DNA of 45,044 nucleotides from a virus. Its lineage: Duplodnaviria > Heunggongvirae > Uroviricota > Caudoviricetes. Position 1 is the stretch's first letter. Every line of letters begins with the position of its first letter. Under the pieces are notes generated by a model. The model worked only from the letters and a program-made list of their open reading frames with translations, searched no databases and was not told the origin of the DNA. The position numbers were made by a program, and so were the translations under genes. Positions 37,185 through 38,356 of the stretch are shown piece by piece. The stretch lies in IMG/VR virus record IMGVR_UViG_2718217859_000007; one strand, 5' to 3'.

Positions 37185-37235
37185 GATCATTAATAGCATT
37201 GTTATTTTTGAAAGTAAATAGCACTACTATTTCAA
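37185..37235. promoter_or_regulatory. OR-like operator pair with divergent promoters
   Basis: Two 15-bp sites AATAGCATTGTTATT (37192-37206) and AATAGCACTACTATT (37217-37231), near-palindromes of AATAGCA-N-TGCTATT; candidate minus-strand -10 TATTAA. Confidence 0.55.
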
Positions 37236-37266
37236 AGAGATTAATAATCTTATTAGAATTGAAGGT

Positions 37267-37767
37267 ATGAAAAGAAAATCCCTGTCAGAGATCGACCTGC
37301 AAGCCGCCCAGAGACTAAAAGAAATCTGGACGGCGAAAAAAAATCAACTAGGGTTAACCCAAGAGCGTGCGGCAGAAATTCTGGGATTTTCGACACAGGG
37401 AGCTGTAAGCCATTATCTAAATGGTCAGACACCTTTAAATCTTGAGGCTGTTATCAAGTTCGCAGGGTTACTGCAAGTTCCTCCCGAGTCAATCAGACCA
37501 GATATGGCCGAGTTGTTACAAATTGTAAGGATGTATCCCCAAGAATCTGGGGAGGACAATGTTGTCACTATATCTGCCGATATGGAACAATCGGAAAACG
37601 AACTTCCGTTTAATATAGACCCCATGGAGCGGGATTTGCTCCAGACGTTCAGGGCTTTCCCCAAAGAAGATAAAGAGAAAATGCTTAAGGAAATGAAGGA
37701 GAAAAAAGAATCAATTGAAGAAATCGTTGCGCGATGGCTAGCTGCGCAAAAAAGTCGTCGCGCCTAA
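37267..37767 (+). CDS. CI-like repressor / PaaR2-like regulator (XRE-family HTH)
   Basis: 166 aa; N-terminal HTH LTQERAAEILGFSTQGAVSHYLNG; divergent from cro-like gene; first gene of operon with the PaaA2/ParE2-like pair. Confidence 0.75.
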   Translation: MKRKSLSEIDLQAAQRLKEIWTAKKNQLGLTQERAAEILGFSTQGAVSHYLNGQTPLNLEAVIKFAGLLQVPPESIRPDMAELLQIVRMYPQESGEDNVVTISADMEQSENELPFNIDPMERDLLQTFRAFPKEDKEKMLKEMKEKKESIEEIVARWLAAQKSRRA

Positions 37768-37784
37768 TCTGAGGAGGTCAAAAC

Positions 37785-37976
37785 ATGAGTACAGCCCTTT
37801 CCCCGATAATTTCTGAATTTGAAACGGTCGAACAAGAAAACAGCTATAACGAATGGTTGCGAGCCAAAGTGGCAGCAAGCCTCGCAGATCCCCGTCCTGC
37901 AATTCCGCATGATGAAGTAATGGCTGAAATGGAAAACCTTATTGCTCAATTAGCTGCAACGAACAGGAGTGAGTAA
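37785..37976 (+). CDS. paaA2: antitoxin PaaA2-like
   Basis: 63 aa MSTALSPIISEFETVEQENSYNEWLRAKVAASLADPRPAIPHDEV.. closely matches recalled PaaA2. Confidence 0.8.
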   Translation: MSTALSPIISEFETVEQENSYNEWLRAKVAASLADPRPAIPHDEVMAEMENLIAQLAATNRSE

Positions 37977-38266
37977 TGCTGCCCATTTTATGGCTACCTT
38001 CTGCACGTGAGGATTTACGTCAGATAGTAGCCTATATTGCTAAAGAAAACCCTCCCGCTGCACGTAGACTAAAAATACGCATTGAAACATCAGTTTTGTC
38101 ACTTACTGAACACCCTTATCTGTACCCACCGAGCGAAAGAGTTCCAAGTCTTCGAGAAATAGTGACTCATCCTAACTACATAATACTTTACCGAGTAACA
38201 ACATCTAACATCGAGATCGTAAATGTAGTTCACTCACGAAGGCAGTATCCAAACAAAAGCTGTTAA
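37976..38266 (+). CDS. parE2: ParE-family toxin (ParE2-like)
   Basis: 96 aa; ParE/RelE-type N-terminus LPILWLPSAREDLRQIVAYIAKENP; start overlaps antitoxin stop. Confidence 0.8.
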   Translation: MLPILWLPSAREDLRQIVAYIAKENPPAARRLKIRIETSVLSLTEHPYLYPPSERVPSLREIVTHPNYIILYRVTTSNIEIVNVVHSRRQYPNKSC

Positions 38267-38277
38267 TCATTTCTGTC

Positions 38278-38303
38278 AAAAACCACCTTCGGGTGGTTTT
38301 TTT
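38278..38303 (+). terminator. rho-independent terminator after repressor-TA operon
   Basis: AAAAACCACC-TTCG-GGTGGTTTTTTT. Confidence 0.8.
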
Positions 38304-38314
38304 CTTGCTGCAAT

Positions 38315-38356
38315 AATAGCATTGCTATTTACATGATTAAATAGCAGTGGTATTGT
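38315..38356 (+). promoter_or_regulatory. OL-like operator pair overlapping PL-like promoter
   Basis: Perfect palindrome AATAGCATTGCTATT (38315-38329) and AATAGCAGTGGTATT (38340-38354); -35 TTTACA, 17-nt spacer, extended -10 TGgTATTGT. Confidence 0.55.

Follow-up and report, generated by a model that had tools for sequence, protein, structure and literature searches.

The IMG/VR virus record IMGVR_UViG_2718217859_000007 (Caudoviricetes; 45,044 nucleotides, the whole of which is called the window here) holds a prophage in which four copies of a 15-bp palindrome lie around a gene for a 166-aa helix-turn-helix (HTH) protein. Which protein recognizes these palindromes is the question raised by the locus. 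An earlier note, made from the sequence alone, had taken them for sites like the right and left operators (OR and OL) of lambda and had predicted an immunity specificity from them. The dyads are very probably the operators of the 166-aa protein, the repressor of a lambdoid immunity switch. This prediction draws on the sites themselves, their geometry, protein homologies, conservation, co-variation with the recognition helix and a natural cassette swap. The OR-like and OL-like reading put forward in the earlier note, and the predicted immunity specificity, agree with the layout, the flanking genes, the conservation across genera and the comparison with prophage CP-933P.

Four dyads in two intergenic pairs

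The operator consensus, AATAGCAnTGCTATT, is a 7 + 1 + 7 dyad (AATAGCA-n-TGCTATT). All four palindromic copies claimed in the earlier note are present (Table 1), and the OL2-like copy, described there as perfect, is so in its 7-bp arms around the central base. The term one-mismatch variants, used for the other three copies, holds when the unpaired central base is ignored and the other 14 positions are scored (1, 1, 0 and 1 mismatches for the OR1-, OR2-, OL2- and OL1-like sites, respectively) but not against the literal 15-mer (1, 2, 0 and 2 mismatches).

Table 1. Coordinates of the putative operators, promoters and genes of the immunity region
Feature	Position	Strand	Description
YdaT (CII-analogue)	36475-36900	minus	85% identical to CP-933P YdaT
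Cro/YdaS-like HTH protein, 91 aa	36884-37159	minus	Recognition helix TQGMVSH
PR-like promoter	37190-37218	minus	-35 TTTACT (37218..37213), 17-bp spacer, -10 TATTAA (37195..37190); read by eye
OR1-like operator AATAGCATTGTTATT	37192-37206		Site closest to cro-like gene; overlaps -10 of leftward PR-like promoter
OR2-like operator AATAGCACTACTATT	37217-37231		Edge shared with PR -35 (minus strand); abuts PRM -35 (plus strand)
PRM-like promoter	37231-37259	plus	TTCAAA-17-TAGAAT; called by promoter scan
Candidate OR3-like site ATTAATAATCTTATT	37240-37254		5 mismatches; 23 bp from OR2; over PRM spacer, touches PRM -10
Repressor, 166 aa	37267-37767	plus	HTH_3, no Peptidase_S24
PaaA-type antitoxin	37785-37976	plus	PF21217; PDB 3zbe, E 2e-23; 73% identical to PaaA2
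ParE-type toxin	37976-38266	plus	PF05016; PDB 5cw7, E 1e-36; 66% identical to ParE2
Intrinsic terminator	38278-38301/38308	plus	Closes repressor operon, directly upstream of OL2; promoter/terminator scan
OL2-like operator AATAGCATTGCTATT	38315-38329		Perfect dyad; final TT opens PL-like -35
PL-like promoter	38328-38356	plus	TTTACA-17-TATTGT, TG-extended; called by promoter scan
OL1-like operator AATAGCAGTGGTATT	38340-38354		Final TATT opens PL-like -10 (TATTGT)

A first-order Markov model predicts 0.007 sites with ≤ 1 arm mismatch per window, compared with the four observed, and the expectation is 0.00015 when the model is trained on the two AT-rich intergenic regions (40% G+C) that hold the pairs. 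The number of hits observed at ≤ 3 mismatches was reached in 0 of 100 dinucleotide shuffles. Both pairs are intergenic and have a centre-to-centre spacing of 25 bp. The first lies between the divergent genes for the Cro/YdaS-like protein and the repressor, and the second directly 3' of the terminator that ends the repressor-paaA-parE operon. The 107-bp repressor/cro intergenic region contains two strong sites and one weak site over the promoters PR and PRM (the promoter for repressor maintenance). The count of four given in the earlier note stands, but the degenerate third OR site was overlooked in it. Three operators at each of OR and OL were not found, as OL has two sites and the third site of OR is degenerate.

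A motif scan of the whole window did not reveal the many copies in coding regions which, according to the earlier note, would have pointed to a compositional artefact. The sole other site with ≤ 2 mismatches is AATGGCAATGCCATT at 18054-18068, a perfect-arm palindrome inside a 538-aa open reading frame (ORF; 16677-18293, minus strand) of the head/packaging region. It was rejected as a fifth operator since it is coding, its mismatches fall at positions 4 and 12, which are near-invariant among operators of relatives, and 0.15 such sites are expected; it is probably a chance occurrence. Inspection of OR and OL in the window and its relatives showed no other repeated dyads. A 12-bp hairpin at 38320-38349, called terminator-like by the scan, was also discarded: it consists of the right half of OL2 pairing with the left half of OL1, and no T-run follows.

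Arrangement of sites and promoters

The overlap of the pairs with promoter elements, also part of the earlier note, was borne out for the two plus-strand promoters, which were called by the scan; for the leftward promoter it was read from the sequence by eye. PR faces the cro-like/ydaT/O/P operon and was not called, its -10 lacking the final T. In relatives, TTGACA or TTGACG occupies the -35 position and TAATAT or TAGTAT the -10 position of PR. PL faces a DUF1391 (ydfA-like) gene and the early operon, which in near-identical E. coli prophages goes on with dicB, exonuclease and integrase genes. PR and PL have the same operator offsets (13, 25 and 36 nt, counted from where the upstream dyad starts), and at both of these repressible promoters TT is common to the upstream operator and the -35, and TATT to the downstream operator and the -10.

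This sameness of offsets, with each dyad being partly a -35 or a -10 element in a region of only 40% G+C, is what would be expected if PR and PL were duplicates of one AT-rich promoter, or if composition and not protein binding made the dyads alike. Such an origin is highly unlikely, as there are two copies per promoter, each with internal dyad symmetry, and the expectation stays at 0.00015 under the model trained on these very regions. In addition, the dyads persist in distant genera while spacers diverge, and they are found beside a homologous repressor in contigs of 57 to 64% G+C (see below).

The -10 of PRM ends 7 nt ahead of the repressor ATG, and there is no usable Shine-Dalgarno sequence, the sole purine-rich run (GAAGG) being 1 nt from the ATG. 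Because the -10 is so close and the purine-rich run abuts the ATG, the repressor mRNA is probably leaderless. The centre of the OR2-like dyad is at -43 from the ATG, which is the presumed PRM start. OR2 of lambda sits at the same position relative to PRM. The distance from operator to ATG is kept across genera.

A lambda-cI-type domain with a PaaR2-type tail

The repressor has a lambda-cI-type N-terminal domain and a PaaR2-type C-terminal domain; it is of the non-cleavable type and is co-transcribed with paaA-parE. Residues 2-90 match the N-terminal domain of lambda cI (phmmer, E ~1e-9, 1lmb and 7jvt), and residues 123-166 are 55% identical to residues 80-123 of PaaR2 (E 2e-16). The protein is also 48% identical over 87 aa to the regulator of an Sp4-like locus (L091, discussed below). 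No match to PF00717 (Peptidase_S24) was obtained in a domain search of the repressor.

An AlphaFold model of the repressor (19 sequences, mean predicted local distance difference test score 77) has five helices in the N-terminal domain (8-28, 32-39, 45-51, 59-69 and 78-89), a disordered linker (91-112) and two C-terminal helices (119-129 and 133-165). The top ten PDB matches of the model in Foldseek are all N-terminal domains of lambda cI, with template-modelling scores of 0.79 to 0.93 on the target and root-mean-square deviations of 1.0 to 3.3 Å. They include the operator complex 1lmb and the complex with sigma region 4, 1rio. In lambda cI, E34 and D38 form the positive-control patch. These residues align with E33 and E37 of the repressor, acidic here too, and nearly every family member has E or D at positions 33 and 37 (exceptions are P0031, the most distant sequence, with D and H at position 33, and P0029, with A at position 37).

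The genes on either side fit an immunity region. Leftward from 37159 are genes for the Cro/YdaS-like protein, a YdaT-family protein, a DnaT/O-like replication protein and a lambda-P-like replication protein. Rightward from 37267, the gene for the 166-aa HTH protein is followed by those for the PaaA-type antitoxin and the ParE toxin, the terminator and then the OL pair. With a repressor-paaA gap of 17 bp, a paaA-parE overlap of 1 bp and a single terminator after them, the three genes form one operon. No antirepressor gene was found in a brief, non-exhaustive look at ten ORFs between 23 and 35 kb.

The map is that of lambda in mirror image: PL, passengers, cI, OR, cro, CII-analogue, O and P. The two systems have in common a homologous N-terminal domain, dyad operators 23 to 25 bp apart, an OR2-like site beside the PRM -35, acidic positive-control positions and an OL that lies past passenger genes and a terminator. 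The repressor mRNA, leaderless in lambda, is predicted to be so in the window. In contrast to the 17-bp TATCACCGCCAGTGGTA-like operators of lambda, those of the window are of 15 bp and of other sequence, with only two sites at OL. The window repressor also lacks the S24 self-cleavage domain, the distance from OR to OL is ~1.1 kb rather than 2.3 kb, and the passengers are paaA-parE instead of rexAB. Phage phi80 was considered as a source of the specificity and rejected: its annotated CI operators (for example, GGTAAACAACATGTGGATT) are unrelated, and its cI gives no BLASTP match.

Conservation of the putative operators in relatives

Relatives were defined as homologues of the repressor, which were collected and aligned, and their loci in genomes and viral contigs were scanned for the dyad. 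Comparison with the immunity regions of related prophages, proposed in the earlier note, showed the same motif at the same positions in these relatives. The recognition helix GAVSHYLN is invariant in the aligned homologue set, down to 34% overall identity. Measured from the repressor ATG, dyads lie at -75 and -50 and a weaker one near -25; a further pair follows the repressor operon. This layout of OR and OL dyads occurs in E. coli, Shigella, Citrobacter, Yersinia, Rouxiella, Providencia, Proteus and Arsenophonus, in loci with the helix TQGAVSHYLN, or TQGAVSQYLN in Providencia, Proteus and Arsenophonus, and overall repressor identity falls to 40 to 60%. The -75 site is kept in relatives of six genera, and OL consists of two sites in every locus examined. 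At the OR3 position several counterparts are better than that of the window, namely ATTAGCAATCTTATT in L051, ATTAGCAATACTATT in L002 and ATTAGCAATACAAAT in Providencia. Most relatives examined have a hairpin and T-run ahead of the OL pair; exceptions, with none evident there, are the Citrobacter-type loci L002 and L071-L074 and the Arsenophonus loci L019/L020.

When the OR regions of twelve loci were aligned, invariant columns clustered at the three operator positions and the spacers diverged. In a position matrix of the sites, positions 1-4 and 12-15 are near-invariant and positions 5-11 variable, so that mismatches are central. The specificity core would be the outer AATA...TATT, with central bases varying freely.

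The recognition helices of repressor and Cro co-vary. The residue after VS, in repressor and Cro alike, is H in E. coli, Citrobacter and Yersinia and Q in Providencia, Proteus and Arsenophonus. Loci of the Q group, and OR3-like positions, have the ATTAG half-site more often. AATAG marks the OR2-like position, and ATTAG is typical of OR3-like sites and, in Providencia and Proteus, also of OR1-like ones. More distant helices go with altered, ATAGTCnGACTAT-type dyads: VSQLLN in the Stx2a phage Lyz12581Vzw and TVSQYLN in Rac-SA53.

The motif was also used in reverse. A search of viral contigs for the paired pattern AATAG-N5-CTATT-N9-11-AATAG-N5-CTATT returned 47 stretches, and in 28 of them a homologue of the N-terminal domain is encoded within 1.5 kb. 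Several contigs of 57 to 64% G+C have the paired motif in a divergent repressor/cro intergenic region.

The operators track the DNA-binding domain, and neither the type of C-terminal domain nor the presence of paaA-parE. Repressors of Yersinia, Rouxiella and Arsenophonus (150 to 156 aa) have the PaaR-type tail and no toxin-antitoxin pair. The Providencia/Proteus loci L014, L018 and L022 (repressor at 3001-3750) encode repressors of 250 aa with a Peptidase_S24 tail, again with no toxin-antitoxin pair, and their operators, AATAGCAATGCTATT and ATTAGCAATGCTAAT, are near-identical to those of the window and at the same positions. The N-terminal domain of these S24-type cI proteins, and of that of phage Lyz12581Vzw, is 52 to 60% identical to that of the window; they differ from it in the C-terminal Peptidase_S24 and in having no toxin-antitoxin pair. 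Repressors of the Citrobacter-type and viral-contig loci L002 and L071-L074 (repressor at 3001-3720) have 240 to 244 aa.

Two side observations concern the design of these proteins. Between Providencia/Proteus and the window, one operator specificity is found both in a repressor design that is cleavable and in one that is not. In L002 and L071-L074, a window-type N-terminal domain is followed by a second HTH and a PaaR-type tail, giving two DNA-binding domains; the second HTH resembles the regulator of the O157 Sp4-like locus, and the OR of these loci has a good third site at -27.

That the dyads might instead be autoregulatory operators of the PaaA-ParE complex is scarcely credible. Most type II toxin-antitoxin systems do autoregulate via palindromes, and the first pair is upstream of an operon that contains paaA-parE, but PaaA2 of CP-933P has no DNA-binding domain and the operon is regulated by the third gene (PMC8630535). 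The same operators occur at both positions in the loci of Yersinia, Rouxiella, Providencia, Proteus and Arsenophonus that have no paaA-parE, and prophages with a pair 73% and 66% identical to that of the window have unrelated repeats.

Exchange of domain and putative operators on one backbone

CP-933P (here also the CHARACTERISED system) is the closest relative to have been dissected experimentally (Jurenas et al. 2021, PMC8630535). PaaR2 is its CI analogue, has no peptidase motif and does not respond to mitomycin. The paaR2 mRNA is leaderless, its PRM start having been determined by 5' RACE. PaaR2 and YdaS both footprint the 97-bp intergenic region (OR), and in reporters each represses PR, PRM and the PL that lies past the toxin-antitoxin genes. 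At low level PaaR2 stimulates PRM, and it forms octamers. Which exact sequences are bound by PaaR2 and which by YdaS was left unresolved in that study (PMC8630535). For the comparison, the PaaR2 sequence was taken from the genome of Sakai Sp12 (= CP-933P); its start, MQKKE, agrees with the published N-terminus.

The window and CP-933P have the same gene order and backbone (YdaT 85%, PaaA 73%, ParE 66% and the repressor C-terminal domain 55% identical). In each, PR and PRM lie in a short divergent intergenic region, a second operator/promoter block is found past the toxin-antitoxin genes, and S24 is lacking. PRM, leaderless in CP-933P, is predicted to be so here. They differ in the operators, since the repeats have the consensus GTTTAGTAA in CP-933P and AATAGCAnTGCTATT in the window. 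CP-933P has four inverted repeats at OR and three sites at OL, compared with two (and one weak) and two in the window. Between the repressor N-terminal domains there is no similarity, and the Cro/YdaS proteins are only 27% identical.

The boundaries of exchange are visible in the DNA. Over ydaT, the repressor C-terminus, paaA, parE and the PL leader, the window is 73 to 94% identical to CP-933P. Homology breaks only at the segment of cro, OR and the repressor N-terminal domain (36914-37696) and at 38250-38365, and the latter break (~110 bp) holds the terminator and the OL/PL block. A third version of the backbone is found in locus L091 (E. coli O157:H7 FRIK944, 2072-2473 and flanks), which is probably Sp4/CP-933M, judging from an ECs1072-family neighbour. 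It encodes a 133-aa regulator with a 434-like HTH and a PaaR tail, has the repeats AAAAACTGT and ACAGTTTTT at both OR and OL, and its paaA-parE is 79% identical to that of the window in DNA. In the three versions the repeats of OR and OL change together with the DNA-binding domain. Of the indirect arguments for the dyads as the operators of that domain, this co-exchange is the strongest.

The PL leader (38365-38522; CCCACCCCGnCCCACAGAAyGCAGGGCAATACTTCGAGTTACC...) is ~94% identical to that of CP-933P and is also kept in the Sp4-like locus. It is conserved although the operator block directly upstream differs completely. It was considered as a put/nut-like RNA and rejected: Rfam gave no match at gathering or at E ≤ 1 except generic terminators, and its predicted fold is no more stable than those of shuffled sequences (z = +1.39). 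The conservation may mark only a recombination boundary.

The CII-analogue YdaT, or a host factor, is a most improbable ligand of the dyads. The ydaT gene is a close neighbour and its product binds inverted repeats, and yet the site of YdaT is TTGATTN6AATCAA (PMC9986795), and the protein is 85% identical between the window and CP-933P while the OR/OL repeats differ completely. In CP-933P a high-affinity YdaT site, OM, and the promoter PRE lie at the end of the cro-like gene (PMC9986795). As a side observation, a one-mismatch copy of the YdaT site, TTGATTTTCATGAATCAC, is present at 36890-36907 in the window, at the cro-like gene end/ydaT start as described for CP-933P.

Over 49 aa across the HTH the Cro/YdaS-like protein is 39% identical to the repressor. 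Its recognition helix is near-identical to that of the repressor (TQGMVSH and TQGAVSH), and it probably uses the same dyads. It is nevertheless very unlikely that the dyads are recognized only by this protein, or by another regulator, with the 166-aa protein binding elsewhere. The likeness of the helices, and the fact that the PaaR2-bound and YdaS-bound sequences of CP-933P have not been told apart, leave some room for such a division. Against it, the motif goes with the N-terminal domain of the repressor from locus to locus and persists even at 42 to 47% identity of the Cro-like protein, OR and OL contain no other repeated dyad, and the two proteins share operators in lambda, 434 and CP-933P.

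Proposed switch

In the switch proposed from these data, the repressor would bind the AATAGCAnTGCTATT dyads as dimers through its lambda-cI-type HTH. At OR1 and OR2 it would cover the -10 and -35 of PR, keeping the cro-like gene, ydaT and the replication genes silent, and at OL2 and OL1 the -35 and -10 of PL, silencing the operon of ydfA...dicB...exonuclease. The dimer on OR2, with its centre at -43 of the probably leaderless PRM, is likely to stimulate transcription of the repressor gene itself; E33/E37 match E34/D38 of lambda. The C-terminal helices, homologous to those of the octameric PaaR2, would supply pairwise cooperativity, and an octamer of four dimers may close a loop over the 1,123 bp that separate OR from OL. 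Transcripts from PRM would carry paaA-parE and end at the terminator ahead of OL. After the switch, the Cro-like protein would most likely take the same sites in the opposite order, probably with the weak OR3 first, which would turn PRM off. RecA-dependent induction is not expected, because the repressor has no S24 domain.

Several points weigh against this account. We infer its steps of binding, activation, cooperativity, looping and order of occupancy, with lambda and PaaR2 as the systems from which activation, cooperativity and looping are extrapolated. The third OR site of the window is weak, its five mismatches making it a poor match, and conservation of OR3 is inseparable from that of the overlapping PRM -10. 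For PR, the -10 (TATTAA) is weak and escaped the scan. The sites in the position matrix were picked by motif similarity, which inflates apparent conservation, though not the central bias of mismatches. Finally, 19 of the 47 stretches from the reverse search have no detectable homologue nearby.

A broader, speculative idea, which is rather unlikely as it stands, is that the N-terminal domain and its AATAG-N5-CTATT operators are a portable specificity cassette. It would range from E. coli to Providencia and to high-G+C proteobacterial phages and be mounted on at least three C-terminal modules (a PaaR-type helical oligomerizer, S24 self-cleavage, and a second HTH with a PaaR domain), with half-site flavours at fixed positions setting the opposite occupancy orders of repressor and Cro. 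Were this the case, mutual immunity would link prophages that differ in genus and in induction logic.

Predicted immunity group and distribution

The prophage type is present in at least 71 of 5,426 complete E. coli genomes, and related elements occur in several genera of Enterobacterales. Databases annotate these genes only as 'helix-turn-helix domain-containing protein'. A literature search with several spellings of the operator sequence gave no match; as a text search that does not reach figures, it argues only weakly for absence. The new elements are an operator sequence for this immunity group and the joining of a lambda-cI-type DNA-binding domain to a PaaR2-type tail. The kind of system is that of the textbook, and conceptually nothing is added beyond the lambda paradigm. 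A concrete operator sequence does allow an immunity group to be predicted for this prophage type. The window, CP-933P and the Sp4-like locus would be three naturally heteroimmune versions in which only DNA-binding domains and operators are exchanged, and this trio may be a handy system for the study of how a non-cleavable repressor with an embedded toxin-antitoxin pair keeps or leaves lysogeny.

Other features of the window

Outside the immunity region, an Rfam match to sok antisense RNA (115 bits; 31787-31962, minus strand) marks a hok/sok-type killer module in the early-right region, and the prophage would thus have two addiction-type modules, hok/sok and paaA-parE. Adjacent genes for tRNA-Gly(tcc) and tRNA-Thr(tgt) (27170-27323, minus strand) lie between the gene for the Q antiterminator (28936-29757) and the lysis genes (24148-25171). 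A 205-aa ORF (23458-24075, plus strand), opposite in orientation to the lysis and late genes beside it, has a weak match to His_Phos_1 (histidine-phosphatase) and may be a cargo gene.

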